Below are positions 8,345-40,199 of a stretch of 64,000 nt of DNA, piece by piece. Location of the stretch: assembly GCA_963731785.1 (NCBI GenBank), contig CAVSWX010000021.1, positions 1,893 through 65,892 of the forward strand. Direction: 5' to 3'. The notes below the pieces were generated by a model. The model was not told the DNA's origin. It saw only the letters and a list, made by a program, of their open reading frames with translations, and did not search any database. The translations under genes and the position numbers were made by a program. Position 1 is the first letter of the stretch. Every line of letters begins with the position of its first letter. The DNA comes from an uncultured Acidobacteriota bacterium. Its GTDB lineage: Bacteria; Acidobacteriota; Vicinamibacteria; Vicinamibacterales; UBA2999.

Positions 8345-9172
8345 CTAGTTGAGTCCGAGAATCGCGCGGGCGTCGGCCGGCGTGGCCACCGCGCGGCCGT
8401 ACTCGGCGCAGAGATCGGCGACGCGGCCGACGAGCTCGGCGTTCGACGCCGCGAGGCGATGCTTGTCCCACCGCACGTTGTCCTCGAGCCCGGTGCGGCA
8501 GTGCCCGCCCATGTCCAGGCACCAGCGGTTCACGTCGATCTGATGGCGGCCGATGCCGGCCGCCACCCACGTCGCGTCGGGCATCAGCTCGCGCAGCTTT
8601 CCGACCTCGAACTCGAGAATGTCGCGTTCGGCCGGCAGGGCGTGCCTGACGCCGAGCACGAACTGCACGTGGAGCGGCGCCTTCAGCACGCCGTCGCGGA
8701 CGTAGTTGACGGCGTTGTAGAGCATCGCGAGGTCGAAGACCTCGATCTCGGGCTTGACGCCGTACTGGGTCATCTTGCCCGCGAGCTCGAGAATGAGATC
8801 CGGCGGGTTCTCGTAGACGCGGGTCGGAAAGTTGCACGACCCGGTGGAGAGCGAGGCCATGTCGGGCTTCAGGTGCAGCATGCCGCCGCGCTCCGATCCC
8901 ACGCCGGAGCGGCCGCCGGTGGAGAACTGCACGATGATGTCGGGGCAGTGCACCCGGATCCGTTCGAGGAAATCCGCGAACTTGTCCGGATTGGAGCTGG
9001 TGGACTGATCGTCGTTGCGCACGTGCACGTGCACGAGCGCCGCGCCGGCCTCGTAGCACGCGTGCGTCGACTCGATCTGCTCGCTCACGGTAATCGGAAC
9101 GGCGGGGTTGTTCTCCTTGCGGGGGACCGAACCAGTGATCGCGGCCGTAATGATGCAGGGAGCGTGAGGCAT
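8345..9172 (-). CDS. 3-keto-5-aminohexanoate cleavage enzyme family protein (BKACE/DUF849)
   Basis: ORF 8345..9190: MPHAPCIITAAITGSVPRKENNPAVPITVSEQIEST...VHVHVRNDD...IIVQFSTGGR...GHCRTGLEDNVRWDK, the typical BKACE TIM-barrel signature. Start taken at ATG 9170-9172. Confidence 0.8.
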   Translation of the reverse strand: MPHAPCIITAAITGSVPRKENNPAVPITVSEQIESTHACYEAGAALVHVHVRNDDQSTSSNPDKFADFLERIRVHCPDIIVQFSTGGRSGVGSERGGMLHLKPDMASLSTGSCNFPTRVYENPPDLILELAGKMTQYGVKPEIEVFDLAMLYNAVNYVRDGVLKAPLHVQFVLGVRHALPAERDILEFEVGKLRELMPDATWVAAGIGRHQIDVNRWCLDMGGHCRTGLEDNVRWDKHRLAASNAELVGRVADLCAEYGRAVATPADARAILGLN

Positions 9173-25300: not shown

Positions 25301-25558
25301 GGGCACGCTGCCGATCGCGTTGGGTCTGGGCGCCGGGGCCGAGGCGCGGCGTCCGCTCGGCCTGGCGGTCGTGGGCGGCCTGCTCGTGTCGCAGCTCCTG
25401 ACGCTCTACATCACGCCGGTCTACTACAGCTACATCGAGGGCCTGCGCCTCCGCCTGGCGCGCAAGCGCGCTCCGGCGCCGGTCCGACGTCGAAGCGCAC
25501 CCGGCCCCGTCCCCGGCCGAAGGCATGGCCCGCAGCGCGCAGCTCGTCGAGCCGGTAG
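22399..25558 (+). CDS. efflux RND transporter permease (AcrB/MdtB-like, HAE1) (at least 2-3 apparent frameshifts; 3' end approximate)
   Basis: [25 protein letters not shown]...(ORF 22399..24864), then ...[17 protein letters not shown]...[32 protein letters not shown] (ORF 24023..25558), then [25 protein letters not shown]...[13 protein letters not shown] (ORF 25257..). Confidence 0.88.
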
Positions 25559-25624
25559 GCGTAGGGCGGCGTCGGCGGCCGTCAGGGCCCGGCGGAGGAC
25601 CTGGCCGCGGGTCTCCAGACCCGC
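25552..25624. repeat. degenerate 9-bp-periodic array plus GC hairpin between convergent genes
   Basis: GCCGGTAGG CGTAGGGCG GCGTCGGCG GCCGTCAGG GCCCGGCGG, followed by the hairpin GCGGGTCT-CC-AGACCCGC (25607-25624). It has the same architecture as 45472-45533. Confidence 0.55.
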
Positions 25625-25631
25625 CTCGTCA

Positions 25632-26183
25632 CTACCGCGGCTCGGACGACGGCGGGACGATGTCCTTCATCCGCATGTAGCTCACCACGTTGCCGTAGTG
25701 CTCGGTGTTGTGGCCGTAGTTGAGCACCAGCAGGCCCATGCGCAGCGACTGCGTCCGCCGTCCGTTCTCCTGCGTGATGGTCAGCACTTCCTGCCCCGAC
25801 GCATCCGTCAGCGCCGCATAGACGCCGTCGCAGTAGGCGAGCGCGTCGTTGACGGCCTTCACCAGCGCCGCCTTGCTGGCGATCTTCTCGAAGTCGGTTC
25901 CTGCGCCCGGGTTCTTCTCGCCCTTGGCCTGCGAGCACCACAGGTAGTTGTAGTTGGCCAGATGGCCAATCAACTGGCCGAAGGTGCGGACCTCGGTCTG
26001 CGTCCCGGGCCGCATGCCATAGAGCTCCTCGGGCATCTTCTCGGCCGCGCGAGCGATGTAGTTGCGGTTGTTGGTGTAGGCGCCGCGCAGCCACGACGAC
26101 ATGGTCGGCGCCGGCGGGGTCTGCGCCAACGCGGCGGTGGCGAACGACAGAGCGAGGACGACGAGGGCCAGCGCCGTTTTCAT
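25632..26183 (-). CDS. DinB family protein (secreted)
   Basis: Last 183 codons of ORF 25632..26282, from ATG 26181-26183: [21 protein letters not shown]...[17 protein letters not shown]...[19 protein letters not shown] (DinB His triad context). Confidence 0.75.
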
Positions 26184-26278: not shown

Positions 26279-27768
26279 TCACTTCAAGTCGAACGTCTTC
26301 TCCGCGGACTCATCCTTGATCGCCGTGCGGAGCACGGCGCGGGTCGTGGTCGTCGGCAGGTCGAACACGACCGTGCCCGTGGTCGTCGTCATCGGCTCCA
26401 TGGTCTCGTTCGGGAACTGGAACGGCGCGTACTGTTCGCCGCCGGCCGAGACCCGCATCGTGATCACGCCGGTGTGCAAGCCGTAACGTCCGCGGTTCTC
26501 CAAGCGAATCGTCAGGGTGAGCCGCAGGACGTTGGCGAACCGGCGGCTCGACGCCCGAAGCAGCGTCACGCCGACGTCGGTGGTGTCCAGCAGCGGCATC
26601 GGGTCGCGGACCACCGCCGCCGTGATGGCCTGAGCGCCGGAATCGGCAATCTCCGCCTGCTCGTCCACCGGAGGCCGGCCGGTCGGCGACAGATCCAGCG
26701 GAATCTCGGCCGTCTCCTGTTGCCGGCCGACGAGGCGCAACGTGCCGGCGCGCATCTGCGGCCGGAGCCGGAACGTGACGATGCCGTACCGCAGCGAATT
26801 GCCTGGCACCGACGTGTTGAGGCCGCTGGTCGGGCTGAGCATGTCGCCGCCGACCGCGAGCCGGAACGAGTCGTCCCAGAACCCGACGTCGTAGCGGCCG
26901 AAATTCATCAGCCGCATGCGCAGGCGCAGCTCCGGCGTGTCGCCGCGCATGACCACGTTGCCCGACACGACGGCGTAGATCGCGTCGCCGAACGCGGCCT
27001 CGGCGATCCGGGGGATGTCGATGGTGTATGGCGATCCGCCTGCCGCGGAGATCGGCGGCCCGGCCGGCACGGAGGAGGCCGCGGCGCGTGGACGCCGGGG
27101 CGCGCGTCGCCGCGTCGCCGCCGCCGGCGGGCGTCGAGGCGCCACCGCCTGGTTCCGCGGGCGGAGCCCCCGGGTCGCCGGCCTCGCCGCCCGACCGCCG
27201 GTTTCCGTTGAACAGCAGCAGCCCCACGATCACGATGGCCAGACGCCGCCGCCACCCACAGCCGCGCCGCAGAGATCGGTGCGTCGGCGCGCGTCGGGTC
27301 CACCGCGCCGGTCGCCGACTCGATCACCCCGACCAGCCGATCGACGTCGGCGTCCCAGGTCTCGTCGCGAACGGTCACCGCGTGCCGCCGGGCCAGCGGA
27401 CGGATGTTCTCCGGCAGCTCCGCCGAGACCGGCATCGACGCGCCTTCGACCAGCACCGGCACCACCAGCACGTTCGGGCGGGTGAGCGCCGCGGCGATCT
27501 CGAGCCGCACGAAGTCGTACGGTTCGTCGAGCCGGCGGCTGCCGGTCATGTCGCGGGCGCCGACCCACTCGCGCCCGATGACGGCCAGCATGACGCGGCA
27601 GTCGTTGAGGCGCGACTCGATCGCCTGCACGAAGTCCTGTCCGGGACGCAGGGTATCGACGTCGCGAAACACCCGTGACGCGCCGAGCCGCCGTTCGAGC
27701 GACTCGCGCAGCCGGCCCGCGTAGCCCGCCGCGTCCTCGCGGCGGTAGCTGATGAAAGTTCCGGCCAT
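26279..27768 (-). CDS. TIR domain protein with a single TM helix and two C-terminal beta-sandwich-like repeats (two apparent frameshifts in the linker)
   Basis: ATG 27766-27768 behind a GAGGA RBS: [46 protein letters not shown]...[12 protein letters not shown]...[11 protein letters not shown] (ORF 26908..27834). Then [15 protein letters not shown] (ORF 26310..27233 frame, nt ~27210-27254). Then two repeats in ORF 26279..27145 (...[34 protein letters not shown]... / ...[35 protein letters not shown]...). Confidence 0.75.
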
Positions 27769-27864
27769 CCGTCCTCTGGGGGAGGAGCGTCCGATTATAA
27801 CGGCCGCTCGAGCCGGTCCGTCTTCATCTTGCACACGTTCGACGGGTGGCCGTATGGTGGAAGG

Positions 27865-28889
27865 ATGCGCGACCCGATCATCCAGACGTCCCCGCTCGGC
27901 TCACGATGGCAGACGTCCGATCCGTTCCTCTTCTGCGTTCATCACATCGATCACTATCCGCGGGGCAACGACCGGCTGGGGCCCGACGCACCGCTGGCGG
28001 GCCACGACGTCGGGCAGGACTTCGAGGGCCACGGACGGCTGGCGGATGTATCACGGCGACGTGGTGCCGGGCTTCCCGCAGCACCCGCACCGCGGTTTCG
28101 AGACCGTGACCATCGTTCGCACCGGCTACATCGATCACTCCGACTCGCTCGGCGCCACGGCACGCTTCGGGATGGGCGACGTGCAGTGGCTCACGGCCGG
28201 GGCCGGCGTGGTGCACTCGGAGATGTTCCCGCTCCTCCACGCGGACCGGCCGAACGATCTCGAGCTGTTTCAGATCTGGCTGAACCTGCCCGGCCGCGAC
28301 AAGCTGGTGGCGCCGTATTTCACGATGTTCTGGGACCAGGACATCCCACGGGCCGTCCATCGCGACGCCAACGGCCGCACGGTGACGATCACGGTGATCG
28401 CCGGCGCGCTCGACGGGCTGCAGCCGCTGGCGCCGCCGCCCAATTCGTGGGCGGCGAGTCCCGAAGCGGACGTGGCCATCTGGTCGATCGCGCTCGAGCC
28501 CGGCGCGTCGTGGGTGGTGCCGCCGGCCGCGTGATGCCTCGACCATCCGGACGCTGCATCTGTTCCGCGGCACGGCGCTCAAAGTGGGAGAGCGGATCGT
28601 GCCGGGCCCGTCCGCCATCCAGGTGCACGCCGATCAGGCGGTGCCCCTCGAGGCCGTCGACGGCGCCGCCGAAGTGCTGCTGCTGCAAGGGAGGCCGATC
28701 GGCGAGCCGGTCGCGCAGTACGGCCCGTTCGTGATGAACACCCGCGCCGAGCTGGAGCAGGCGTTCCAGGACTACCGGCGCACGCAGTTCGGCGGCTGGC
28801 CGTTTCCCGAGAACGCGCCTGTCCACCCGCGCGACCGCGGCCGCTTCGCCCGTCACGCCGACGGCAGGGTCGAGGAGGCGGGCGCCTGA
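27865..28889 (+). CDS. pirin family protein (2-3 apparent frameshifts)
   Basis: [31 protein letters not shown] (ORF 27829..) joins [63 protein letters not shown] (ORF 27752..28534). It ends with ...[44 protein letters not shown] (ORF 28584..28889). Confidence 0.85.
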
Positions 28890-29344
28890 CGGTGCGCCTC
28901 GAAGAACCCGCGCCAGAAGAAGCCGTTCTGGAACGCGACCAGATACACCATCAGTTTCGGCGTGGCCAGAGCCCCCGAGGCGTTGAGGTCGGCGACGACC
29001 CCCAGCAGCGGGATGAACACGATCGGCGACGCGAAGATCGGCATGAAGAACGCCGAGGGGTCGAACCGGTAATCGCGCGTGCGGGCCTGATCGAAGCCGT
29101 CCTGGGCCGCCATCCCCAGCAGCATGGCGCCGTAGCAGAAGACGATCGCCAGCGTCTCGTGCAGCGATCCCTTGGCCTCGACCTGCTCCGGGAACGCATA
29201 GCCGAGCACGAGCGCTGCAAGCGCCGTGAGCGCGGCGGCCTGGATCACCCGGCGCGGACGCTTCACCACCAGGTTCACATACCAGACGCACACCAGTAAT
29301 CCCGCCACCGAGGCGGCGAGTACCCACGACAGGACCCACGACAT
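28853..29344 (-). CDS. small polytopic membrane protein (about 4 TM), last gene of the caspase operon
   Basis: Last 163 codons of ORF 28853..29815, from ATG 29342-29344 behind a GGAGGAGG RBS and 20 nt after the caspase gene stop (TAA 29365-29367): MSWVLSWVLAASVAGLLVCVWYV...IVFCYGAMLLGMAA...FFMPIFASPIVFIPLLGVV...LMVYLVAFQNGFFW. No family recognised. Confidence 0.55.
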   Translation of the reverse strand: MSWVLSWVLAASVAGLLVCVWYVNLVVKRPRRVIQAAALTALAALVLGYAFPEQVEAKGSLHETLAIVFCYGAMLLGMAAQDGFDQARTRDYRFDPSAFFMPIFASPIVFIPLLGVVADLNASGALATPKLMVYLVAFQNGFFWRGFFEAHRQAPASSTLPSA

Positions 29345-29364
29345 CGCTGCCTCCTCGCCATCCG

Positions 29365-30787
29365 TTATTGCACGAAGACGAACTCGCCCCGGCTCGCCCC
29401 GCCCGGCCCGAGGTCCAGGAACATCGGCGAGAGCTCGCGGTTGGCCCGGCGCGCCTCGCGCTCGACCGCCGGTCGCAGCCACACGTAGAGCTCGCGTGCG
29501 GTCACGATCCGGTCCTTGTAGAGGTCGGCTTCGCGGCGAAGCCCGGTGAGCAGCTCCTCGGTGAAGAGGCTCCCGTTCCATCGCGTGCCGCCGAACGACT
29601 GCTGGCCCGCGGTGCCGGCCATCAGCATGTAGCGCGCCGGTCCGCGCGCCATGCGGTTGAGCGCTTCGGCATCGACCTTGGGGTTCGGCTGGCGAATCGT
29701 GTTGGACTTCATCTCCATGCCGTCCACCGCGAGGCCGCTGAAGCACGAGTCGAGCACCACCATCAGGTGCTCCACGCTCAGGCCTTGAGCCACCGCACCA
29801 GGTCGAGCATCGCAATCGAGTTGCGGTGGCGCCCGTCGTCGATCTCGACGGCCAGCGGCAGGAACCCGCGTGTGGCCGTGCCGCTGCCGTCGGTGATGCC
29901 GTGACCGGAGTAGTAGAACAGGAACCGGTCGTTCGCCTGCATCTTGCCTTGCAGATAGCGCTGCGGATGGCGGAACGCGTCGAGCGTCACCTGGTCGTCG
30001 ACGAGCGTCACCACCTCGTCGAAGCCTTGCGCGTCGAGGTACTCCTTCATCTTGAGGACGTCCTGCGCCGGCGAGGCGAGCGGCGCCATGTGGCGGTACT
30101 TCCCGATGCCCACGACGAGGGCGTAGCTCTTGTTGAACGCGGGCGGTGTCGGCGACAGGTACGTCGTCCACAGCTCCCACAGGCGCGCAGTAAAGCTCGG
30201 GCGATCCGGCGCCTTGGCCTCGACGCCGACCTTCGAGGTGGCGAGCATCTGCGGCTGGAGGCCGTCCACCTCGAACAGGAGCACGCCGTTGAAACCCGAG
30301 GCGCTGAAGCCCGGCGGGCGCAGGAAGTACACGAGCCCGTGGCGTTCGGCGCCCGGAGCGAGACGCCCGCTCGCCAGCTGCTTCCCGGCCAGCGCCGATT
30401 CGAGCGCGCCGGGATGAAACGCCGACGACTGGCGGCCGATGAACCGCAACACGCTTGGCATCCGCTTCATCTTGCGGATCTCGCTGGCGACGGCGGCTGC
30501 CGCCAGCGGCCGCAGCGTGGTGTCGCCGCCGAGTCCCAGCCGCACCGCCTCGTAGTCGAGCGCCACGCGCTTCGGTGGAAGTGTTGCGAACGGTCACCGC
30601 CACCGGCAGCGCTCGCGAGCCGCCGAGCAGCGGGTCGACGGCGGACGGATCGAGGTACTCCAGACGGACCGCCAGCGCACCGCTGCGCTGGCCGGTCAGC
30701 TGGAACTCCATCTGCCGCGCCGTCTGCGCCAGGCGTCGCCCGCGAGCAGCAGGGTCGAGCCACGCCGCGATCGGTGCGCGCGACCAT
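29365..30787 (-). CDS. caspase family (peptidase C14) protein with N-terminal beta-sandwich-like domain (at least 2 apparent frameshifts; N-terminus unresolved)
   Basis: ORF 29778..30566: ...KSYALVVGIGKYRHMAPL...DRFLFYYSGHGITDG (His codon 29901-29903). It joins the frame of ORF 29365..31983: GLSVEHLMVVLDSCFSGLAV (Cys codon 29743-29745) ...GEFVFVQ*. The N-terminal part is MEFQLTGQRSGALAVRLEYLDPSAV...ALPVAVTVRNTSTE / VALDYEAVRLGLGGDTTLRP. Candidate ATG at 30785-30787, 13 nt after the upstream stop. Confidence 0.8.
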
Positions 30788-30800
30788 GATGCGGGCCGCG

Positions 30801-31968
30801 TCAGAAGCCGAAGTGGCCCTGGAAGAACACCGAATGCGCGTCGAGGCCGCGAGCCCTCGACACGTTTGTAGCCGACGTCCACCGGGGTGTGCCCGCCAAC
30901 GAGATACGACACGCTGGCGATGACGAGCCACGGCGCCGGCCGGTCTTCGGCTGCCGGCGAGCCGAGCGGGACCGTGTGCAGGAATTTGCCGTTCAGCGAC
31001 GTGCGCGAGGTCAGCGCGTAGCCGCCGACCACGCCGTAGGCGAGGTCCCAGGCCACCCCGCGCTCGTTGACCGCGTCGGCGAGCATCCGCATTTCGTCGG
31101 CGATGAGGCCGGTGGGCACCAGGCTCTTCGACGCCTGCAGCAGTCCGGCGCCGGCAATACGGACCTTGTCGAAGTCCTTGTGCGCCGACGACCAGACACC
31201 GCCGCCGAGATCGAACGAGCCGAAATCGAGCGTGTCGCCGTGCGCGTAGAGCGCACCGTAGCGAGCGTTGACGCCGACCCGTACGGGCAGCGGCGCTTCG
31301 ATCTCGATCGATGGATGGTAATCGGCGCCGACGGAGAAGGAACGCGTGCTGGTCTGCCGCAGCGTCCCGAGGTTCTCGTGCTGCTGGGTGACGCGGCCCT
31401 GGATGCCCATGTGGATCCCTTCGAGCCGGTAGAGGCCTTGCCAGGCGTGGCCGGTCTGGCCCGGCGTGTCGATCTGCTCGAACTCGAGCAGCCCGGCGGC
31501 GGTTCCGCGAACCATCGCGTTGCCGCGGCGCACGGCGGTGATGTCGAGCGCGGTCGTCAGCAGGAACTGCTGCGAGTAGGTCTGGGCCGCGTCGCGGCCG
31601 GTGACGCTCTCGGAGATGCTCGAGGGGAAGAGCAGCGCGAGGATCGCGCCGGCGTTGTCGTTCACCCAGCGGTTGAAGGCCGCGCGCGAGGGGTCGAGGT
31701 CGGCCGGGAGACTCGAGGGACTGGCCGTTGCGCGAGATGCGGAAAGCGGAAATCTGGTCAGCCGCGCCGAGCGACGCGCCCACGCCGTCCAGATTGAGCA
31801 CGGTGGCCTCGATGGTGCCGCCGTAGATCTGGCCGTTGACGATCTGGACCGGCGCATCCTCGACGCCGTTCCACAGGGCCAGGACCGCGTCGCCGATGGA
31901 ATTCTGCGCGGAGAGCCGGGGCCGCGCCGATGAGAAGTGCTCCGACGAGGGCCGACCGCGAACTTCAT
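30801..31968 (-). CDS. outer-membrane beta-barrel protein (several apparent frameshifts), first gene of the caspase operon
   Basis: ATG 31966-31968 (MKF...). A shifted frame gives the signal-like ALVGALLIGAAPALRAE. The long middle part lies in the frame of ORF 29365..31983 (...GLYRLEGIHMGIQGRV...SFSVGADYHPSIEIEA...VRVGVNARYGALYAHG...WDLAYGVVGGYALTS...). A third frame ends ...LDAHSVFFQGHFGF* with stop TCA 30801-30803, the aromatic C-terminus typical of OMPs. Confidence 0.55.
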
Positions 31969-32093
31969 GACGTTGTCCTCCACGCGGCGGGAACAGCCGC
32001 TCTATGAAGGACAACGGGAGAGGTGCCCGGACCGCACAGCAGTGCGGTCCGGGGCAGAGGGGCTTGAAACGGGCGCCCTGGGGCCCGTGGAAT

Positions 32094-32910
32094 CTACGAC
32101 TTCTTCGTGGCGCTCCAGCTCGCGCCGGCGCTGGTCGTGCCCTTCATCGAGTTGCCGTTCACCTTGCCGGTGTAGGTGGCGCCGTTGGCCGCGAAGGAGA
32201 TGTCCTCACCCGTCAGGCGGCCGTTGCTGATCGGCGCCGAGCCCATGCGTGCCGCCGAGCACCTGGAACTCCTGCGTGAGGGTGAGCGTGTTGGTGCCGA
32301 GCTGCCAGGTGCCCGCGGCCTTGGCCGGCACGATCCACAGGTAGGCCGTGCACCAGCTGGTGCAGTCGCCGGTCACCGACGGCGGTCTCGTCGGCCTGCC
32401 AGGTGTCCATCGTGAACGAGTTCGACACGATGCGCGTGCCCGGCTTCATGTTCAGGATGGTCGGCCGCAGCCGCAGGTTGATCGACGGCAGCAGGAACAT
32501 CGTGACGACCTGCGCCTTCGAGAAGTCGGTCTCGAAGAGGTCGGCCTTGACGAAGGTCGCCTTGTCGCGACGCCGGCCGCGGTCGGCGTTGCGCTTCGAC
32601 AGCTCCACCATGTCGGGGTTGTATTCGATGCCCTGCGCCTTCAGGCCGCGCTTGGCGGCGGTGATGACCGTGCGGCCGTCGCCCGAGCCGAGGTCGATCA
32701 GGTAATCCTGCGGCGTGACCTTGGCCAGGTCGAGCATCTTCTCGACCAGCGCCTGCGGCGTGGGCACCCACACCACGTCCTTGCCCGGCTGTCCGACGCT
32801 CGGCTCGAACGGCTTGGTGCCGGGCGCGGCCTGGGCCAGGGCCAGCGACGAAACCACGCACGAGAGAGCAGCCGTCAGACGGCAACGCGAACAGAACGGG
32901 ACACGAGCAT
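32094..32910 (-). CDS. secreted class I SAM-dependent methyltransferase with a Cys-containing C-terminal beta domain (apparent frameshifts)
   Basis: ORF 32213..32956: signal LTAALSCVVSSLALAQA, then VVWVPTPQALVEKMLDLAKVTPQDYLIDLGSGDGRTVITAAKRGLKAQGIEYNPDMV (motif I) ...VVTMFLLPSINLRLRP...GTRIVSNSF. My own translation of the next frame gives TGDCTSWCTAYLWIVPAKAAGTWQLG...ISNGRLTGEDISFAANGATYTGKVNGNSMKGTTSAGASWSATKKS*, with stop at 32094-32096. Confidence 0.65.
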
Positions 32911-33145
32911 CACGGTCGTCTCCAGGATGAAAGCGAAATGGCCGCCGGCCGCACACACGCGGTCCGGTCCGGCTCGAAGCGGAAATACGATTACTCGCGC
33001 GGGCACCGTTTCACCAAATGTTTCTTGCGGCGCATAAGCGGCGAATCGCCGCAAACAGCTGAGCTCGTGCGACTTCCGCTTGATTCGGCGCCAGTTCTGC
33101 AGTTCGATAACGCGCCATGCAGAGGTCGATCTCCGGGACGCCCGC

Positions 33146-36021
33146 ATGAGCATGCAGGCACCGGCGACGCCGGTCACGTCCGAACGAGGTCCACGCCCGC
33201 GAGCGCAGCCATCACCTCGAGAAGTCGCCTGACGAGCCGCTGGTCGGGCTCGCGCTCTCGGGCGGCGGCATCCGCAGCGCCATGTTTCGGGCTCGGCGTG
33301 CTGCAGGCGCTGCATAAGCTGGAGCTCTTCCGAGCACCTCGACTACGTCTCCACCGTGTCGGGCGGCGGCTATATCGGCGGCTGGCTCCAGGCCGCCGTT
33401 GGCCAACGGGCGGCTGGCCGCGCCATCGAGCTCGAACGGCGAGGAGCCGCGCGAGATCCGCTTCCTTCGCGCCTACAGCAACTACCTCACGCCGAAGCTG
33501 GGGCTGTTCAGCGGCGACACCTGGGCGGCGGTCGGCAACAGCCTGCGCAACCTGATTCTCAACTTCACGATTCTGAGCCTCTCGCTGCTCGCGCCGCTCT
33601 ACCTGCCGTGGCTGGCTGCGGCCGTGTTCTGGGCAGCTCGTGCCCGACCCCGGCCGACGTGCCGCTGGCTGGTCGGCGGCCGCGGGGCTGCTGTTCGCGC
33701 TGGTCGTGGCGGCGAGCATCGCGAACATGGCGCGGCCGCTGCGCGCGGCGGCCGGCACCACGTCGGGCGCCTCGCACGGCGACCGCGCACGGGTGTATGC
33801 CACGGTGATCGTCCCGGCGCTCGTGGCGACCTGGCTCGTCAGCACCGTGATGTGGGCGTGGGCCCGCGACCGGCTGACTTCCGAGCGGCGCGGACCGGGC
33901 TGGACGCCGCGCTGGCGGTGCGCTGGGCTACGCCGCCGTGTGGACGGCCGGTCTCGTCGCCGGCTTCAGGTGGCGGCGATCGGGCGCGGCCTCTCGCAGA
34001 CGCGAGCACTGCGTGGTACGTGCGCGTCCATCCGGCGTCGGTCTGGTGCTGGTGGTCAGCGGCGCCGTGGCCGGGTGGCTCGGCACGTTCCTCATGGGGC
34101 TGGCGACGCACGCGCTGGCGTTCGGCCGCGAGGCCGGGGCGCAGTCGTGGCTGGCCGGGCTGCTGGCGTTTCCGATCGTGCCTCGTGCCTGATGCTGGCG
34201 GTGTCGGCACACATCGGCTCTGGCCGGCGATGCCATGTCGGACGGGACGCGCGAGTGGTGGGGACGGGTCGGCGGCGTGCAGCTGCTGATCTCGCTCGTC
34301 CTGATCGTCGTCGGCGCTGCTGGCCCTGCGTCGGCCCGCACATCTTCGATCTGCATGCGCCAGCATGGCGGCCTGGCTCGATCATGCACGAGATCTCGGT
34401 CGAAGACGGCGCTCGAGTGCGGCGTGGGCCGTGCTCACCGGCGACCGGCGTGCTGGCGGGCCGCTCGCAGCAGACGGGGACCGGGCGGCGGCAACCGCCT
34501 GCTCGAACTGGCGGGCCGGGTCGGCGCCGGTGGTGTTCGTGTTCGGCTACCTGCTCATCCTCGCGACGCTTCATGCACCGCGCCGTCCCGCAGTGTCGCC
34601 GATCGCGTCCTGGCGGCGACGGCATTCCGCGACCTTCTCGCTGTGCGAGGTCGAAGCGCACCTGCAGGCGCGGCCGCCAGCGGCCGGCCGCTGGGCCGAC
34701 GTGCTCGCGGCCGGATAGGCGCCGCGGCGGCGCCGCTGCCGATGGGACGCCGGGATGCCGGCGTGCAGCGCCGTGTGCACGCGGCGCCGCCGGCGGCGCA
34801 TCGGCGGGCTGCTGTTGATGCTGCTCGAGCTCGGGCGTGCTGGCCTGGCTGATGTCGTGGCAGGTCAACCTGAACGAGTTCTCGCTCCACACGTTCTATC
34901 GCAACCGCCTGGTGCGCTGCTTCCTCGGCGCCTCGCGCACGCGCGACGCCGCATCCGTTCACCGGGTTCGACGACAAGGACGACGTGCCCCTGGCGGAGC
35001 TGGCCACCCGACGCGCCCGACGGCCGCATCCGGCCGTATCCGATCTTCAACGCCGCCATCAACCTGGTGGCGGGCAAGAACCTCGCGTGGCAGGAGCGCA
35101 AGGCGGCATCGTTCGTGTTCACGCCGGAGTACTGCGGGTTCGAATACCGCGACGACGACGATCCGCCCGCCGAGCGGAAGGCGGCGGCGACGCGCGCCGC
35201 GGAGGACCGCGGCGGTGCAGCAGAAGGCGGACGACAGCGGCGTGGTCACGCGCCGGCCCGCGACGCCGGCGTGAAGCGCCTCAGCGCCTACGCACGTACG
35301 TCGCGAGCACGCCGAGCGATCCGCCGCTCGCTCACGATGGGGCTGGCCATCGCCACCTCGGGCGCCGCCGCCTCGCCCAACATGGGCTACCACTGCTCGC
35401 CGACGCTGGCGTTCCTGATGACGGTGTTCAACGTCCGTCTGGGCTGGTGGCTGCGCAATCCGCGCTTCCCGAGCCGTGTGGACCGACGCGAAGCACCCGC
35501 CTGTCGCTGCGCGAGCTGCTCTACGAGCTGCTCGGCATGACGACCGACGACAAGAAGTGGGTGTATCTCTCGGACGGCGGCCACTTCGAGAACCTCGGCG
35601 TCTACGAGCTGGTGCGGCGCCGCTGCCGGCTGATCATCGCCTGCGATGCCGGACAGGACGGCGACGTCACCTTCGAGGATCTCGGCAACGCCATCGAGCG
35701 GTGCCGCGCCGACTTCGGCGTGAACATCGAGATCGATCTGGGCAACCTGCGCGCCCGGCGCCGATGCCGCTCGCGAATGGCACTGCGCGATCGGCACCAT
35801 CCGCTACGACCGCCTGCCGCCGCGTGAAGGAGGGCGACCCCGCTCGAGGTGCCGGGGACGCTGCTCTACATCAAGACGCTCGCTCACCGGCGACGAGCCG
35901 GCCGACGTCCTCCGCTACGCCGCCGAGCACCCGGCCTTTCCCCACGAGTCCACGCAGCGACCAGTTCTTCGACGAGTCGCAGTTCGAGAGCTACCGCGCG
36001 CTGGGCTTCCACGCCGTCTGA
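33146..36021 (+). CDS. patatin-like phospholipase with a large polytopic membrane insertion between the Ser and Asp motifs (many apparent frameshifts)
   Basis: Joined fragments: LVGLALSGGGIRSAMF (oxyanion GGGxR, 33261-33275), DYVSTVSGGGYIGGW (nucleophile Ser codon 33359-33361), REIRFLRAYSNYLTPKLGLFSGDTW. About 8 hydrophobic segments follow across 33540-34860. Then NLNEFSLHTFYRNRLVRCFLGAS, YPIFNAAINLVAGKNLAWQERKAASFVFTP, LAIATSGAAASPNMGYH, WVYLSDGGHFENLGVYELVRRRCRLIIACDAGQD (Asp codon 35573-35575), and ...FPHEST.DQFFDESQFESYRALGFHAV, with TGA at 36019-36021. Confidence 0.75.
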
Positions 36022-37163
36022 CGAGGCGTTCAGCAGCGCCTTCGCGCGCCGAGGAGTGCCGCCGCGCTCGCCGACGTCGAGATCTTCACGCTGCTGCGGC
36101 AGCGCTGGGGCAAGCCGGCGCCGGCGCCGCCCGACGCGCTGCGGAAGTACTCCGGCGGCGCTCGAGCGCATCTGGACCACCGTCCGCACCACGGAGAGCC
36201 TCACGTTCCTCGACAGCCAGATGTTCCCGGAGATGCCGGCGCTCATGGGCGTGCCGCACGGCCGCATGCACCGGAGCAGCCGGGACGGCCGCGCCGGTAC
36301 CCGACGTCAACTACTGGCTGCCGCCATCGGACGAGGAGCGCCGCGAGGGCTTCTACGTCTGCGTCCAGATGCTGCAGCTGATGGAGGACGTGTTCCTCGA
36401 CTTCGACCTCGACGAGCACTACGACCACATCGACAACCGCGGCTGGATGAACCTGTTCCAGCACTGGGCGTGGTCGGGCATGCTGTGCGCGACCTGGGCG
36501 ATGACCGGCTCCACGTTCGACCCGCGGTTCCAGCGGTTCTGCATGGACGCGGCTCGATCTGCGGCCCGGGCGTCCCTTCGGTGGCCGACATGCAGGCGGC
36601 CATCACGTTGCCCGACCCCGATCGAGTGGCGGCAGTGGAGCCTGGCCGGCGAACGCGGCGCAGCACGGACGCTGCTCGCCGAGTGGCAGAGCCGCGACGG
36701 TCTCAATTTCTGGGAAGCCGAGCTCGTGGACGAAGTACATGCGCGCCACCCGGCACCCGGTGCAGCGGCTGTTTCCGATTTACGTCACGGTCGAGAGCCC
36801 GCGCCGGTCCGACGGCAATCCCGCTGCGCTTCAACGTCGGCTACATCATCGGCGACGTCGTGGTGGCGCCGGGCGTGGCTCCGCGCGTTCGTCCTGCACT
36901 ACATGCGCATCCAGAACCACCTGCGGAAGATGGGGCTGGCCCGCGACGCGCTCATGTCGCTGCGGCGGACGCTCGGCGTCGAGATCGACGTCGGCGATCC
37001 GTTGTTCGACCCTGCGCGTCGCCGACGGCACGGCCTCGGACGAAGCGCTGCCGTCGGCCGACGCGGCTCGTGCGCCTGCGCGCCATCGTCCGTTCGCTCC
37101 CGCGTATGTGAGCGGCGCGCGCCGCCTGACCCCGCCGACGGCTCGGGTACAATGACGCGCTGA
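36022..37163 (+). CDS. unassigned coding region: either a C-terminal extension of the patatin protein or a separate gene (frameshifted)
   Basis: Protein-like strings are spread over three frames: LADVEIFTLLRQRWGKPAPAPPDALRKY; ALERIWTTVRTTESLTFLDSQMFPEMPALMG; EGFYVCVQMLQLMEDVFLDFDLDEHYDHIDNRGWMNLFQHWAWSGMLCATWAMTGSTFDPRFQRFCMD; LAEWQSRDGLNFWEAELVDEVH; RFNVGYIIGDVVVAPG; FVLHYMRIQNHLRKMGLARDALMSLRRTLGVEIDV. No family recognised. Confidence 0.35.
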
Positions 37164-38241
37164 TGACCTATACCCCAATCGAAAGAATGCGCGCGGCGCG
37201 CGCGCTGCGTCGCGGCCTGGCGATTGCCGCCGTGGCGCTCCGGCCGCCGGTCTCGGCGCCCCGGCGGGCAGGCGGCAGCGGCACAAGGCGCGCCCGGGCG
37301 CACCGCGGCCCCTCCCGCACCACGCGACCGCCATCCCCCTCGAGGTCGTGCAACTTACGGCCCGAGTTCTACGCCATCGTCGGCGCCGGCGCCAACATCG
37401 CCGTGCAGTTCGGGCCCGACGGCGTGGTCGTCGTGGACACCGGGTCGGGCGAGCGGTCGGCCGACGTCGTCGCCGAGATCAGGAAGCTCACGCCGCGGCC
37501 CGATCCGCTACATCATCAACACCAGCGCCCACCGCGATCACGTCGGCGGCAACGACGAGCTGTCGAAGGCGGGGCAGTCGGTGATTCCCACCGGCGGTCT
37601 CAACGAGATCGGCGCCGCCGGCGGGCGCGCGCCCATCCTGGCCGAGGAGCACGTGCAGGCGGCGATGACCGCGCCGCACCGGCGAGCAGGCGCCGTTTCC
37701 CGTCGGCGCGTGGCCGACGGTGACCTACTCGTCGGACCTGATGGAAACGCAGAAGGACCTCTACTTCAACGGCGAGGCCATCATCACGAGCTACCAGCCC
37801 AACGCCTATCTCGGACGGCGACAGCGTGGTGTTCTTCCGCCGCTCGGACGTGGTCGTGACCGGCGAGGTCTACGACCCGACGCGGTTCCCGCGCATCGAT
37901 CTCGAGAAGGGCGGCAGCATCCAGGGCGTGATCGACGCGCTCAACCGCATCATCGCCATCACCGTGCCGCCGATTCCGCTGGTCTGGCAGGAGGGCGGCA
38001 CGATCGTCGTCGGCGCGCACGGCGTCATCGGCCACGAGGCCGACGTGGTGGACTACCGCGACATGGTGACGATCGTCCGCGACCGCGTGCAGGACGGGAT
38101 CAAGAAGGGGCAGACGCTGGCGCAGATTCGGCAGGCCGATCCGGTCAAGGGCTATCGCCGGCCGCTTCGGCGCCGACAGCGGGCCCGTGGACGACCAACC
38201 AGTTCATCGAGGCGGTCTACAAGAGCCTCGGAGGCAAGTAG
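37163..38241 (+). CDS. MBL-fold metallo-hydrolase, secreted (several apparent frameshifts)
   Basis: EFYAIVGAGANIAVQFGPDGVVVVDTGSGERSADVVAEIRKLT / IRYIINTSAHRDHVGGNDELSKAG (HxHxDH-like motif with the first His as Ser) / DSVVFFRRSDVVVTGEVYD...GTIVVGAHGVIGHEADVVDYRDMV / ...WTTNQFIEAVYKSLGGK*. These fragments come from ORFs 37163.., 37224.., 37720.. and 37826... Confidence 0.7.
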
Positions 38242-39131
38242 TGAGGACCCTTAGCCGCACCCTCCAGGCTGGCGCCGCCATCGCCATGGCCGCGTTGACG
38301 TTCGCCAGCCTTGCCGCGCAGGGCCGCGGCGCCGCGCCCGCGCCGCCGGCCGCACCGGCGCCCGCTGCGCCGGCCGCGGCGCCAGGGCCGTGGCGAGCGG
38401 GCGGCCGCGGCGAGGCCCGCCGCCGACCGCGCGCGCCGCCGCGCCGATCGATCTCACCGGCTACTGGGTGTCGGTCATCACCGAGGACTGGCGCTGGCGC
38501 ATGGTCACGCCGCCGAAGGGCGACTACGCGAGCGTGCCGATCAACATGGACGCGAAGAAGGTCGGCCGACGTGTGGGACCCGGCGAAGGACGAAGCGGCC
38601 GGCGAGGCGTGCAAGGCGCTACGGCGCGCCCGGCCTGATGCGCCTGCCGACGCGTCTGCACATCACCTGGCAGGACGACAACACGATGAAGATGGAGGCC
38701 GACGCCGGCACGCAGACGCGGCTCTTCCACTTCGGCGACTGGAAGGCTCCGGGCGGCGCGCCGACGCTGCAGGGCGACACCACCGCGCAGTGGGAAACCG
38801 GCGCGCGCGGCCGCGGCGCCAACCAGCCGCCGCCGATGTTCGGCAACCTGAAGACGGTGACGAAGAACCTGCGCCCGGGCTACCTGCGGAAGAACGGCGT
38901 GCCCTACAGCGACAAGACGACGCTGACCGAATACTGGGACCTCGCCAGGCAGCCCAACGGCGACCAGTGGATCATCGTCACCACCGTCGTCGAGGACCCC
39001 ACCTACCTCGCGCGGACCTGGATCACCAGCCTCAACTTCAAGAAGGAACCCAACGGGTCGAAGTGGGATCCGTCATGCCGTCAGGTGCTGCGGGTCAAGA
39101 CCGCCTCAGGGAACCCCAGAGATGCAGATGA
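38241..39131 (+). CDS. secreted hypothetical protein, distant member of the D-[LF]-[ST]-G-x-[WY] family (apparent frameshifts)
   Basis: GTG 38241 overlaps the upstream stop. Signal AIAMAALTFASLAAQG, then PIDLTGYWVSVITEDWRWRMVTPPKGDYASVPINMDAKKVG (ORF 38390..). Then GAPGLMRLPTRLHITWQDDNTMKMEADAGTQTRLFHFG...PGYLRKNGVPYSDKTTLTEYWDL...IIVTTVVEDPTYLARTWITSLNFKKEPNGSKWDPS (ORF 38311..). Confidence 0.55.
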   Translation: MRTLSRTLQAGAAIAMAALTFASLAAQGRGAAPAPPAAPAPAAPAAAPGPWRAGGRGEARRRPRAPPRRSISPATGCRSSPRTGAGAWSRRRRATTRACRSTWTRRRSADVWDPAKDEAAGEACKALRRARPDAPADASAHHLAGRQHDEDGGRRRHADAALPLRRLEGSGRRADAAGRHHRAVGNRRARPRRQPAAADVRQPEDGDEEPAPGLPAEERRALQRQDDADRILGPRQAAQRRPVDHRHHRRRGPHLPRADLDHQPQLQEGTQRVEVGSVMPSGAAGQDRLREPQRCR

Positions 39132-40199
39132 CACGCACCGCTGCCACCGCGCTTCACGCTCGTCTCGCTTCATGACCGTCCGCGCCCGCCTTCGCCCAGG
39201 GCGGCGGCGTGGCCGAAGCCGCAGGCCGCGGGTGCAGGGGAGCCTCATCGACCTCTCCGGCACGTGGGCCAACCGCCTGCACGAGGACTGGATCGAGCGC
39301 GCGCCCGGCCCGCACATCGGCGACTACACCGGCCTGCCGATCAACGACGAGGCGCGGGCCATCGCCGACGCCTACCAGGTGTCGATGCAGAACATGCCCG
39401 AGCGGCAGTGCATCCTCTACACCTCGCAGTACATCGTGATGGGGCCGCAGAACCTGCGCATCCAGCAGGAGCTCGATCCGATTACGGGCGGCCGTGGTGG
39501 CCTACCAGTTGAGCGGCACGGTGGATCGCCCGCCGCACACCATCTGGATGGACGGCCGCGCCGCACCCGTCGGCCAACGCGCCGCACACGGCGGGCGGCT
39601 TCTCCACCGGCACAGTGGGAAGGCGCGGATGCTGACCGTGACCACCACGCACCTGAAGACCGGGCTGGTGTGGCGCAACGGCGTGCCGCACAGCGACCAG
39701 GCGACGATGGTGGAGCACTACATCCGCCACGAGAACATGCTCACGGTGACGATGATCCTCACCGACCCGATCTACTGGGAGGAGCCGTTCATCCGCAGCG
39801 CCACGTTCGAGCTCGACGCCAACACGCGCGTGCTGCCCGAGCCGTGCGAGCCGCAGGTGGAGATTCCGCGCAGCCCCGGGCGAGGTGCCGCACTACCTGC
39901 CGGGCGCCAACCCGTACCTGACGGAGTTCCCGAAGCTGTACAACCTGCCGATGGAAGCCGCGCGCGGCGGCGCGGAGACGACCTATCCGGAGTACGGCAA
40001 GGAGCTGCGCACCACCTACAAGGCGCCCGACAAGTGCACGGTGTACTGCTGCGGCGGGCACCACGCTGGCGATGATGAACAACTCGCAGGCGGTGTGCCG
40101 CGCGGACGACCCGCCGGCAGCACCGGCCGGCGCGCGGCGCTGGCACCCGACGCCGCCCGCGGTCCGACGCCGGCTCCGCGGCAGGAGTCAAGGCCCTGA
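39122..40199 (+). CDS. secreted hypothetical protein, member of the same family as 1315..2140 and 9232..10110 (apparent frameshifts; ends approximate)
   Basis: ATG 39122/39128, then LIDLSGTWANRLHEDWIERAPGPHIGDYTGLPINDEARAIADAYQ...QCILYTSQYIVMGPQNLRIQQELDPITG. ORF 39494.. follows (VVAYQLSGTVDRPPHTIWMDGR...MLTVTTTHLKTGLVWRNGVPHSDQATMVEHYIRHENMLTVTMILTDPIYWEEPFIRS). Then EVPHYLPGANPYLTEFPKLYNLPMEAARGG... Confidence 0.55.

Follow-up and report, generated by a model that had tools for sequence, protein, structure and literature searches.

An 11-kb segment of an acidobacterial contig encodes a TIR domain protein, a caspase-like protease, and a patatin-type lipase, and it raises the question of whether the three work together. 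The segment lies in what we call the window, the whole stretch of 64,000 nucleotides that was analyzed. A preliminary description of this DNA had proposed one co-functioning, envelope-sensing defense or programmed-death island of a new type, on the grounds that three abortive-infection-type effector domains lie within 11 kb and that all of them are tied to membrane modules. Its fallback was that three unrelated envelope enzymes are neighbors by chance, and the neighborhood evidence supports this second view. We found that a single narrow group of soil Acidobacteria is the only one in which TIR, caspase, and patatin genes are neighbors. Our best explanation, to which we give a probability of about 80%, is that the region from 26.3 to 37.2 kb is unremarkable chromosomal DNA of a Vicinamibacterales-type acidobacterium. 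In this explanation, its three envelope-associated units function independently of one another and owe their adjacency to local synteny only; the TIR protein is inherited with the lineage and the lipase is inherited vertically. The unusual part of the locus is a mobile set of three genes, centered on a caspase-like protease that leaves the cytoplasm. The analysis thus isolates three tractable, uncharacterized architectures: an exported-caspase cassette, a membrane TIR class, and a membrane-threaded lipase family.

Frame correction and gene content

The window has a GC content of about 70% and shows no GC anomaly. Neighboring genes are metabolic (homogentisate dioxygenase, PQQ dehydrogenase, aspartokinase). 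Indel frameshifts occur throughout the 64 kb, and the coding phase switches every few hundred bases. Because of these frameshifts, a plain listing of open reading frames and a simple GC3 filter were useless. Therefore, we joined frames with a codon-usage Viterbi caller and verified the stitched frames by frameshift-aware protein-to-DNA alignment against clean homologs; gapped tblastn was unfit for frameshift counts. With the frames corrected, Pfam and clean homologs confirmed that three units are encoded at 26.3 to 37.2 kb. The catalytic codons and motifs reported earlier were all recovered at their coordinates, and pirin and a SAM-dependent methyltransferase are interspersed among the units, as had been described. 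The features are as follows.

26282..27768, minus strand: single-pass membrane TIR protein, about 495 amino acids (Pfam TIR_2; alignment to homolog P0226)
27865..28886, plus strand: pirin (bicupin; Pfam Pirin 85.9 bits, Pirin_C 64.4 bits)
28856..29344, minus strand: TM4, polytopic inner-membrane protein, 163 amino acids (intact open reading frame)
29368..30786, minus strand: caspase-like C14 peptidase, 473 amino acids (Peptidase_C14, AF2 model, homolog alignment)
30804..31968, minus strand: putative outer-membrane beta-barrel protein, 387 amino acids, first gene of the cassette
32094..32910, minus strand: exported SAM-dependent methyltransferase with signal peptide, about 270 amino acids (Pfam Methyltransf_25/31, DOT1)
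33146..37108, plus strand: cPLA2/patatin-type lipase, a single gene of about 1300 amino acids (homologs, motifs, AF2 model)

Searches with Pfam models upheld two of the three effector domain calls in the window itself. TIR_2 (PF13676) scored 53.4 bits on the stitched protein and 53.7 bits on P0226 (cutoff, 28), and Peptidase_C14 (PF00656) scored 64 to 65 bits (cutoff, 21.4). The patatin call also stood: its motifs are where they had been placed, and the clean homolog P0109 passes Patatin (PF01734; 32.3 bits against a cutoff of 27.7, over residues 28 to 85 only). The stitched window protein has no Pfam match.

The frameshifts could be real, in which case the genes would be decayed pseudogenes and nothing here would be functional. 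The evidence for this comes from the lipase gene, whose window copy has about 31 to 53 frameshifts and one stop codon. At about 53 in 3.96 kb (about 13 per kb), its indels are more than 10 times as dense as those of its neighbors; its mismatches against the close relative L087 are also about twofold higher, and the gene is broken in two further assemblies (L001 and L002). However, frameshifts span the whole window; the RND pump has 0.95 per kb, and other housekeeping genes are affected as well. The indel-to-substitution ratio in the patatin region, about 0.4, is far above that of natural decay and typical of long-read consensus error. Close relatives carry intact genes on short-read-type contigs (L087 and L088). 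The frame-corrected TIR protein, caspase, barrel-like protein, and pirin are 92 to 99% identical to intact homologs, with no stop codon: 94.5% for the TIR protein (against P0226; 2 frameshifts), 99.2% for the caspase (against P0001; 4 frameshifts), 92% for the barrel-like protein (against the L087 homolog; 4 frameshifts), and 97.9% for pirin (against L088). The methyltransferase is 92% identical to that of L087. We consider general decay of these genes improbable. The lipase indels look like assembly error, and the window copy of the lipase may be nonfunctional.

Neighborhoods of the three units

The complete gene order MFS-RND-DinB-TIR-pirin-cassette-MTase-patatin-MBL is conserved in close relatives; here, the cassette comprises the genes for the barrel-like protein, the caspase, and TM4. 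In the roughly five closest relatives with enough flank, the three units are always together, which would fit a single island. However, these loci also share the RND, DinB, pirin, methyltransferase, and MBL genes, which is plain synteny, and the units co-occur only at a caspase identity of ≥59%, where the whole neighborhood is syntenic. Within the clade itself the linkage is broken twice. In L008, with a TIR protein 71% and a patatin 82% identical, the order is TIR-pirin-MTase-patatin and the cassette site, from pirin to the methyltransferase, is only 390 bp long; in DASYRM010000190.1, that site holds about 11 kb of unrelated genes (ParE, PadR, a MacB-type ABC transporter, and others).

Beyond about 55% caspase identity, the linkage is absent. 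Among cassette loci at 32 to 53% caspase identity, a TIR gene was present in 0 of the 15 with at least 4 kb of flank on the TM4 side, and a patatin gene in 0 of the 10 with at least 4 kb on the barrel side. Neither gene was found in the five distant cassette contexts that were annotated, and the units did not co-occur in any distant locus of the TIR, caspase, or patatin families. Distant homologs of the TIR protein (45 to 54% identical) and of the patatin (36 to 51% identical) are solitary and lie amid housekeeping genes, such as those for tRNA synthetases, UvrC, MFS transporters, and oxidoreductases.

In the window, the units lie on different strands, with pirin and the methyltransferase between them. 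The preliminary description had seen no known sensor partner, and this held: no cyclase, SAVED, STAND, ThsA, or cas gene, and no other sensor or known defense gene, was found among the scanned window neighbors. PADLOC, suggested earlier as a check on the defense reading, returned domain-level matches only, and none for the patatin. Defense islands are called on co-occurrence across diverse genomes together with known defense genes; here, co-occurrence is confined to syntenic close relatives, and no such genes were seen among the neighbors scanned. Thus, a single co-functioning defense or death island is very improbable. In the closest clade, conserved synteny and functional cross-talk between the units may coexist. 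We take the case as a caution that effector-type domains alone are poor ground for calling a defense island: the proteins that carry the TIR, caspase, and patatin folds here have a topology and a conservation pattern that indicate separate envelope functions. The analysis established the domain identities, the architectures, the catalytic residues, and the independence of the units, whereas the topologies, substrates, and physiological roles given below are inferred.

Pirin and the methyltransferase are conserved flanks of a variable hotspot and belong to none of the three units. The methyltransferase gene stands beside the patatin gene in both L008 and L168, which have no cassette.

The exported-caspase cassette

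The cassette is an accessory, self-contained set inserted in the pirin-methyltransferase hotspot. Its three genes are colinear in about 45 loci, on contigs of 47 to 69% GC. TM4 adjoins the caspase in all of these and lies upstream of it in distant variants; the pairing is kept, with the order reversed, down to 26 to 37% identity. All-versus-all clustering of open reading frames gave no fourth conserved gene, and only shadow frames of the three genes recur. No terminal or flanking repeats or tRNA marking a mobile element were found around the cassette, and neither the caspase nor TM4 had a homolog in the plasmid collection. Five distant contexts were annotated (P0031, P0033, P0065, P0043, and P0055); their neighboring genes are mostly metabolic, transport, and regulatory, and known defense genes are absent. 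In one lineage, the cassette is part of an eCIS locus, where a PF13699 gene lies on either side of it.

The caspase-like protein starts with a signal peptide. An N-terminal domain rich in beta structure, which contains a helical insert, follows (residues 25 to 190), and then comes the caspase domain. The earlier call of a beta-sandwich followed by a caspase was borne out, with the catalytic dyad intact: the His codon is at 29901-29903 in YYSGHG and the Cys codon at 29743-29745 in LDSCFSG, and none of 23 homologs deviates at either residue (H295 and C348). The AF2 model (pLDDT 82) has MALT1 and metacaspases as its best folds in the PDB (Foldseek, E~1e-10, probability 1.0). Homologs in which the N terminus is present begin with a hydrophobic stretch, after which comes a site of the AxA type. 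The protein is predicted to be Sec exported and would therefore not be a cytoplasmic death effector. The beta-rich domain was also compared with the repeats of the TIR protein as a candidate shared sensor module; hhalign probabilities of 5.6% and 0.9% led us to reject this.

Metacaspases, orthocaspases, and MALT1 (MEROPS C14) share with the cassette caspase the fold and the His-Cys dyad, and its D-S-C-x-S-G motif matches the metacaspase DSCHSG. This metacaspase motif implies Arg/Lys specificity at P1. Unlike metacaspases, the cassette caspase is exported and is encoded in an operon with membrane proteins, and its beta-rich N-terminal domain, which has the helical insert, is new. Our literature search found nothing specific on periplasmic orthocaspases.

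The two partner proteins are both predicted to be membrane proteins, and the operon of an outer-membrane-barrel-like protein, a caspase, and a protein of about four transmembrane helices, as first described, is present. All 16 homologs of the barrel-like protein carry a signal peptide and end in an aromatic residue (FxQGxFxF/W); the window copy, which also has a signal peptide, ends in the aromatic beta-signal …VQGHFGF. These features make an outer-membrane barrel fold a putative assignment; searches found no Pfam, NCBIfam, or PDB sequence relative, including by profile against PDB sequences. For TM4, hydrophobic stretches in the alignment predict four to five helices, and a motif, MPIFASPIVFIPLL...KLMVYLVAFQNGFFW, is conserved. 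The TM4 family comprises 250 clusters at 50% identity, nearly all of 150 to 185 amino acids, and matches no Pfam or NCBIfam family.

If these assignments are right, the protease would act in the periplasm or at the cell surface, with the barrel as its outer-membrane anchor or conduit and TM4 as its obligate membrane partner, either a substrate or an anchor/regulator. A clan-CD peptidase is held on an outer-membrane beta-barrel in the attachment complex PorU-PorV of the type 9 secretion system. The cassette is similar by analogy, since it couples the gene for an extracytoplasmic clan-CD cysteine peptidase to that for a putative outer-membrane barrel. However, that peptidase is C25-like and the cassette enzyme belongs to C14, and TM4 has no counterpart there. 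We propose, tentatively and as an unlikely reading, that the cassette moves horizontally and encodes a protease system spanning the envelope, made up of an outer-membrane sensor or anchor, a periplasmic metacaspase-like protease, and a dedicated inner-membrane target. Once the protease was switched on, this target could serve as a pore, a death effector, or a signal transducer. A targeted literature search did not find a trans-envelope system of the barrel-caspase-TM4 type described.

An accessory cassette in a variable hotspot is a typical signature of defense genes, and the cassette may by itself be a conflict system. In its specific form, this would mean abortive infection or interbacterial competition in which an envelope event at the barrel activates the protease and TM4 is cleaved into an inner-membrane pore; such a system would be analogous to the caspase-EACC1, Pepco, and gasdermin modules but periplasmic. 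The patchy, accessory distribution in hosts of 47 to 69% GC and the eCIS locus are consistent with this. Protease-effector defense modules include caspase-EACC1, Pepco/Trypco, and bacterial gasdermin (Evans et al. 2025, PMC12642450; Kaur et al. 2020, PMC7159879). Like these, the cassette has a clan-CD caspase-like protease that is invariably beside a small protein, and such strict pairing resembles that of protease-effector modules (PMC12642450). The caspase domain is also nearest the "EACC1-associated" subfamily, with 84 bits to NCBIfam caspase_w_EACC1 (NF047832). However, this score is below the cutoff of 140, and the neighboring protein has no EACC1 match. The cassette protease, unlike those of the known modules, has a signal peptide and lacks an NTPase or other sensor domain, and a third gene, for the outer-membrane-barrel-like protein, is added. 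TM4 is a helical, integral membrane protein of four to five helices, unlike Pepco and gasdermin, and unlike EACC1, which is a soluble beta-rich propeptide. A candidate basic cleavage residue in its conserved E-[ST]-K-G loop is Met in several homologs. No known defense genes were seen in the five annotated distant contexts, and there were no plasmid matches. We therefore regard this specific form of conflict system as doubtful. The identification of TM4 as EACC1 itself was rejected on size, fold type, and the lack of a model match.

If TM4 does turn out to be a membrane effector gated by the protease, the logic of protease-effector pairs would reach the periplasm. A trans-envelope system of the kind proposed above would correspond, outside the cytoplasm, to the caspase-gasdermin and caspase-EACC1 modules.

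The membrane TIR protein and the membrane-threaded lipase

The TIR protein has an N-terminal TIR_2 domain, one transmembrane helix, a Pro/Ala/Gly-rich linker, and two homologous repeats. By hydropathy scan, the lone hydrophobic helix starts at about residue 170 in full-length homologs, and its position in the window protein was read off the homolog alignment. In hhalign, repeat 1 and repeat 2 at the C terminus match each other with a probability of 98%. The earlier layout of a TIR domain, one helix, and two repeats stands; the beta-sandwich fold assigned to the repeats is a putative one. The predicted topology places the TIR domain in the cytoplasm and the tandem-repeat ectodomain toward the periplasm. 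On this topology, the ectodomain would meet an envelope cue, the TIR domains would cluster, and NAD+ cleavage would be turned on.

The window domain resembles bacterial TIR NADases (Thoeris ThsB, AbTir, TcpB-type) in exceeding the Pfam threshold for TIR_2, in its N-terminal FISYRR strand, and in the Glu of F-V-R-L-E-I, which is at the catalytic position, in register with the W/CxxE motif. This residue (codon 27499-27501; E90 of P0226) is invariant in 14 homologs. Unlike those enzymes, the window TIR precedes a transmembrane helix and a tandem-repeat ectodomain, a receptor-like topology, and its homologs lie in housekeeping contexts rather than in defense islands. It also differs from Thoeris in having no ThsA, SLOG, or Macro partner, and no ThsA-like gene was found in the window neighborhood or in those of the TIR homologs. 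Matches to Thoeris models were limited to 26 bits over 57 residues for PADLOC ThsB and 35.9 bits, against a cutoff of 220, for NCBIfam ThcB4. The protein is thus not assigned to Thoeris. In the plasmid collection, it gave TIR-domain-level matches only, and our literature search found nothing specific on TIR-TM-periplasmic proteins. Membrane TIR proteins with variable ectodomains are widespread, and in topology the class resembles Toll-like receptors.

The lipase homologs, more than 2070 in number, are single proteins of 1200 to 1600 amino acids. The window protein begins with a segment that carries GGGxR and the VSGGG nucleophile, continues with about 10 to 12 transmembrane helices, and resumes with the remaining lipase domain, which carries DGG (35573-35575); a helical domain and then a GNAT-like C-terminal domain follow. 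The three motifs are invariant in 99 homologs. The AF2 model has a pLDDT of 86, and its top Foldseek match is cPLA2, at a probability of 1.0 but with an E value of 0.027; the family profile matches cPLA2-delta (E 8e-4). The GGGxR oxyanion motif, the nucleophile Ser elbow, and the Asp of DGG are shared with cPLA2 and patatin-like phospholipases (human cPLA2, ExoU/VipD, CBASS CapV), and cPLA2 is the best fold and profile match. In contrast to these enzymes, the window lipase has a catalytic domain interrupted by the transmembrane helices, presumably at roughly the place where cPLA2 carries its cap, and has the added helical and GNAT-like domains. It also lacks the cyclase or CD-NTase partner of CapV: no cyclase was found in any neighborhood examined, and the PADLOC patatin effector models gave no match.

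Our literature search found nothing specific on membrane patatins in Acidobacteria. The catalytic domain is most likely cytoplasmic. The C terminus matches NatD and HAT1 (Foldseek probability 0.87 to 0.99 over about 90 to 113 columns, a structural match without sequence-HMM support), and an R-K-M-G-L-A motif of the RxxGxA type is near-invariant in this domain. A GNAT-like domain on a lipase points to lipid remodeling. Rather than being a death effector, the enzyme would carry out a cytoplasm-facing deacylation or reacylation of membrane lipids. The family, in which a membrane domain interrupts a cPLA2-type domain and a GNAT-like domain is attached, is relevant to membrane-lipid remodeling in the Acidobacteriota.

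Gene calls and sequence quality

Throughout the 64 kb, housekeeping genes such as the RND efflux pump included, the coding frame jumped every few hundred bases in a GC3 phase plot and with a codon-usage Viterbi caller. We stitched frames into genes and then checked each gene by frameshift-aware protein-to-DNA alignment to clean homologs.

Genes at 26-37 kb after frame correction (P0226, P0001, and P0106 are homologous proteins)
27768-26282, minus: TIR protein; 94.5% identity to P0226; 2 frameshifts, 0 stops
27865-28886, plus: pirin; 97.9% identity to clean homolog; 2 frameshifts, 0 stops
29344-28856, minus: TM4, polytopic membrane protein; intact ORF; 0 frameshifts, 0 stops
30786-29368, minus: caspase; 99.2% identity to P0001; 4 frameshifts, 0 stops
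31968-30804, minus: putative outer-membrane beta-barrel protein; 92% identity to clean homolog; 4 frameshifts, 0 stops
32910-32094, minus: methyltransferase (MTase); 92% identity to clean homolog; 3 frameshifts, 1 stop
33146-37108, plus: patatin/cPLA2-type lipase; 81% identity to P0106; 53 frameshifts, 1 stop

The preliminary description had reported TIR, caspase, and patatin genes here. We have confirmed this observation, and every codon it named was correct. TIR_2 scored 53 bits (cut-off, 28), Peptidase_C14 scored 64 bits (cut-off, 21.4), and Patatin scored 32.3 bits in a clean homolog (cut-off, 27.7). The TIR Glu lies in a segment of 11 residues and is invariant in a 14-sequence family alignment. 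The caspase His (in YYSGHG) and Cys (in LDSCFSG) are invariant in 23 sequences, as is the lipase Asp (in YLSDGGHFEN) in 99.

The patatin region is one gene of ~1300 aa, because its homologs are single proteins of 1200 to 1600 aa. Frameshifts number ~13 per kb in this copy, compared with 1 to 4 per kb in the adjoining genes, and there is one stop; an RND control gene had 3 per 3.2 kb. This is probably a local assembly-quality problem; less likely, the copy is a pseudogene. Aligned with a short-read-type contig (L087), the window showed 0 to 9 gap openings per 500 nt between 28.7 and 33 kb; between 33.5 and 35 kb it showed 20 to 26, and mismatches were also ~2-fold higher there. The resulting indel-to-substitution ratio of ~0.4 in the patatin stretch argues for local consensus error. 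The gene is also fragmented in two further assemblies (L001 and L002), which is compatible with assembly error too. The other genes look intact in the corrected frames. Around the RND/DinB intergenic region, alignments to L088 and to L001 each opened 22 to 26 gaps per 500 nt at 25500-26000, far more than in the flanks, which marks a hypervariable or error-prone spot.

Co-occurrence of the three units

The TIR gene, the cassette of barrel, caspase, and TM4, and the patatin gene had been interpreted as a possible envelope-sensing defense or death island. The neighborhood test proposed with that interpretation, which we ran from the caspase, TIR, and patatin sides, refuted it. TIR, pirin, and patatin genes adjoin the cassette only in seven loci, with caspase identity of at least 59%. 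Because the RND pump, DinB, MTase, and MBL-fold genes are common to these loci as well, the co-occurrence is whole-block synteny. At 32 to 53% caspase identity, a TIR gene was absent from all 15 loci whose TM4-side flank reached at least 4 kb, and a patatin gene from all 10 whose barrel-side flank was at least that long.

Scanning GTDB species genomes, we recovered the full-length TIR architecture from ten acidobacterial MAGs. In one locus (L008; TIR 71% identical), TIR and pirin genes are followed by 390 bp only (8521-8910) and then by MTase, patatin, and MBL genes, so that the caspase cassette is cleanly absent. In DASYRM010000190.1 (TIR 73% identical; its patatin is P0109), the pirin-MTase junction (L168 1-9000 with L007) instead holds ~11 kb with a ParE-like gene, PadR, a MacB/FtsX-type ABC transporter, a glyoxalase, a sigma-like gene, and others. 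Neither of the other two units was found in seven loci with TIR 43 to 52% identical (L009-L015). The TIR homologs P0333 and P0298 neighbor oxidoreductases, MFS transporters, and tRNA synthetases, and the patatin homologs P0127 (51% identical) and P0168 (36%) neighbor UvrC, tRNA-modification genes, two-component systems, and similar genes. Thus, the adjacency of the three units is synteny within a narrow clade, which supports the fallback reading of unrelated neighbors. The pirin-MTase junction (28850-32100) is a variable hotspot that a 3.1-kb caspase cassette fills in this lineage.

In the suggested DefenseFinder/PADLOC check, PADLOC gave domain-level matches only, to caspase (57 bits) and ThsB (26 bits), and none for patatin. 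The remaining window genes are metabolic. GC content is ~70% along the whole window, and 26-37 kb shows no compositional break. Homologs from NCBI identify the organism group as Vicinamibacterales (Acidobacteriota).

The exported-caspase cassette

Interest now rests on three uncharacterized variants of known enzyme families: the cassette around the exported caspase, the class of membrane TIR proteins, and the split cPLA2-GNAT lipase. We found ~70 full-length caspase homologs, every one metagenomic, and, through neighborhood look-ups and a metagenome scan, ~45 loci with co-linear barrel, caspase, and TM4 genes (caspase identity, 32 to 99%) on contigs of 47 to 69% GC. A Sec-type signal peptide is present in those caspase homologs whose N terminus is included. 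In the model of the caspase (pLDDT 82), a helix for the signal peptide precedes a beta-rich N-domain, which has a helical insert, and the caspase domain; the closest PDB matches of the model are MALT1, metacaspases, and GSU0716. The Cys motif is of the metacaspase type (D-S-C-x-S-G), which by analogy with metacaspases suggests Arg/Lys specificity. The barrel-like protein ends in F/W and likewise has a signal peptide. TM4 has 4 to 5 helices and a very conserved C-terminal half, and the TM4 family, which stands alone, comprises ~250 clusters at 50% identity. Neither protein has a Pfam or NCBIfam family.

The pairing of TM4 with an exported caspase persists despite differing gene order and caspase architecture (L143). 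The cassette would form a protease module in the periplasm or at the surface, and TM4 would be its obligate partner. Conceptually, it comes closest to the protease-effector modules (EACC1, Pepco, gasdermin; PMC12642450). We rejected assignment to this type, because the score did not reach the cut-off, the partner protein differs, the protease is exported, and there is no sensor.

Distant TM4 homologs lie directly upstream of exported caspases with other architectures (L143 9306-12670; L138, L145, L146, L149, L150, and L152). One such caspase, 980 aa long with a signal peptide, has its caspase domain at the N terminus and three repeats of ~200 aa at the C terminus. No barrel match was found at these distant loci. 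In a metagenomic lineage of ~55% GC, the cassette sits inside an extracellular contractile injection system locus (L004 8704-11998; also L005 and L006); there it is flanked on both sides by PF13699 (eCIS_core) genes, and Pvc16_N, AAA, tube, and baseplate genes are nearby. On the contig of homolog P0033 (JGI 3300078620), a second Peptidase_C14 gene (563 aa) lies ~5 kb away from the cassette and shares an operon with genes for an ECF sigma factor and a 264-aa protein.

The membrane TIR protein and the split lipase

The TIR protein has no signal peptide. Its TIR domain is followed by one TM helix, a low-complexity linker, and, outside the membrane, two C-terminal repeats homologous to one another (hhalign, 98%). 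Proteins from Hydrogenophaga, Dechloromonas, Thauera, Denitromonas, Gemmatimonadales, and others share the same plan: a TIR at the N terminus (FISYRRDD…GYAGRL), a TM helix at ~170-200, and a C-terminal domain that varies. The protein may be receptor-like, with an ectodomain that would govern the clustering of the TIR domains and their cleavage of NAD+. None of these findings demonstrates a role in defense. The plan with a single TM helix and a variable, Pro/Ala-linked ectodomain is widespread (L016-L086, e.g., L025 10001-11530 and L034) in Betaproteobacteria (the four genera named), Gemmatimonadales, and Chromatiales. In a Caldilineaceae protein, the same TIR is joined instead to an FGE-sulfatase-like domain.

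For the lipase, we examined an AF2 model of the family member P0169 (pLDDT 86). It runs from the lipase start through ~10 to 12 long membrane helices to the remainder of the lipase domain, after which come a helical domain and, at the C terminus, an alpha/beta domain. Human cPLA2 ranked top in Foldseek (probability, 1.0), and the family profile matched cPLA2-delta (E = 8e-4) and VipD in PDB sequences. The C-terminal domain matches the GNATs NatD and HAT1 (Foldseek probability, 0.87 to 0.99), and its near-invariant R-K-M-G-L-A (HLRKMGLAR) fits the GNAT RxxGxA motif. The 1.1 kb previously left unassigned (~36000-37108) encodes the helical and GNAT-like domains. The lipase has no signal peptide, both of its halves must lie on one membrane side, and the segment after the TM helices is Arg/Lys-rich; these features point to an active site that faces the cytoplasm. 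The protein combines a lipase with a GNAT-like domain, both carried by a large membrane scaffold, which suggests that it deacylates and re-acylates lipids and does not act as a triggered death effector.

In L008, L168, L002, and L106, the gene for the SAM-dependent MTase (32094-32910) and the patatin gene remain a divergent pair. The MTase has DOT1 and Methyltransf_25 matches, a PADLOC "mad2" match (55 bits), and a C-terminal beta-rich domain, and it is apparently exported, given its N-terminal signal peptide. After the patatin gene, an MBL-fold gene and two further genes without a Pfam family of their own (37362-40116) form a trio repeated in L008 and L168. On the contig of homolog P0043, a distant caspase cassette has a comparable trio (MBL, 259 aa, and 298 aa) nearby.
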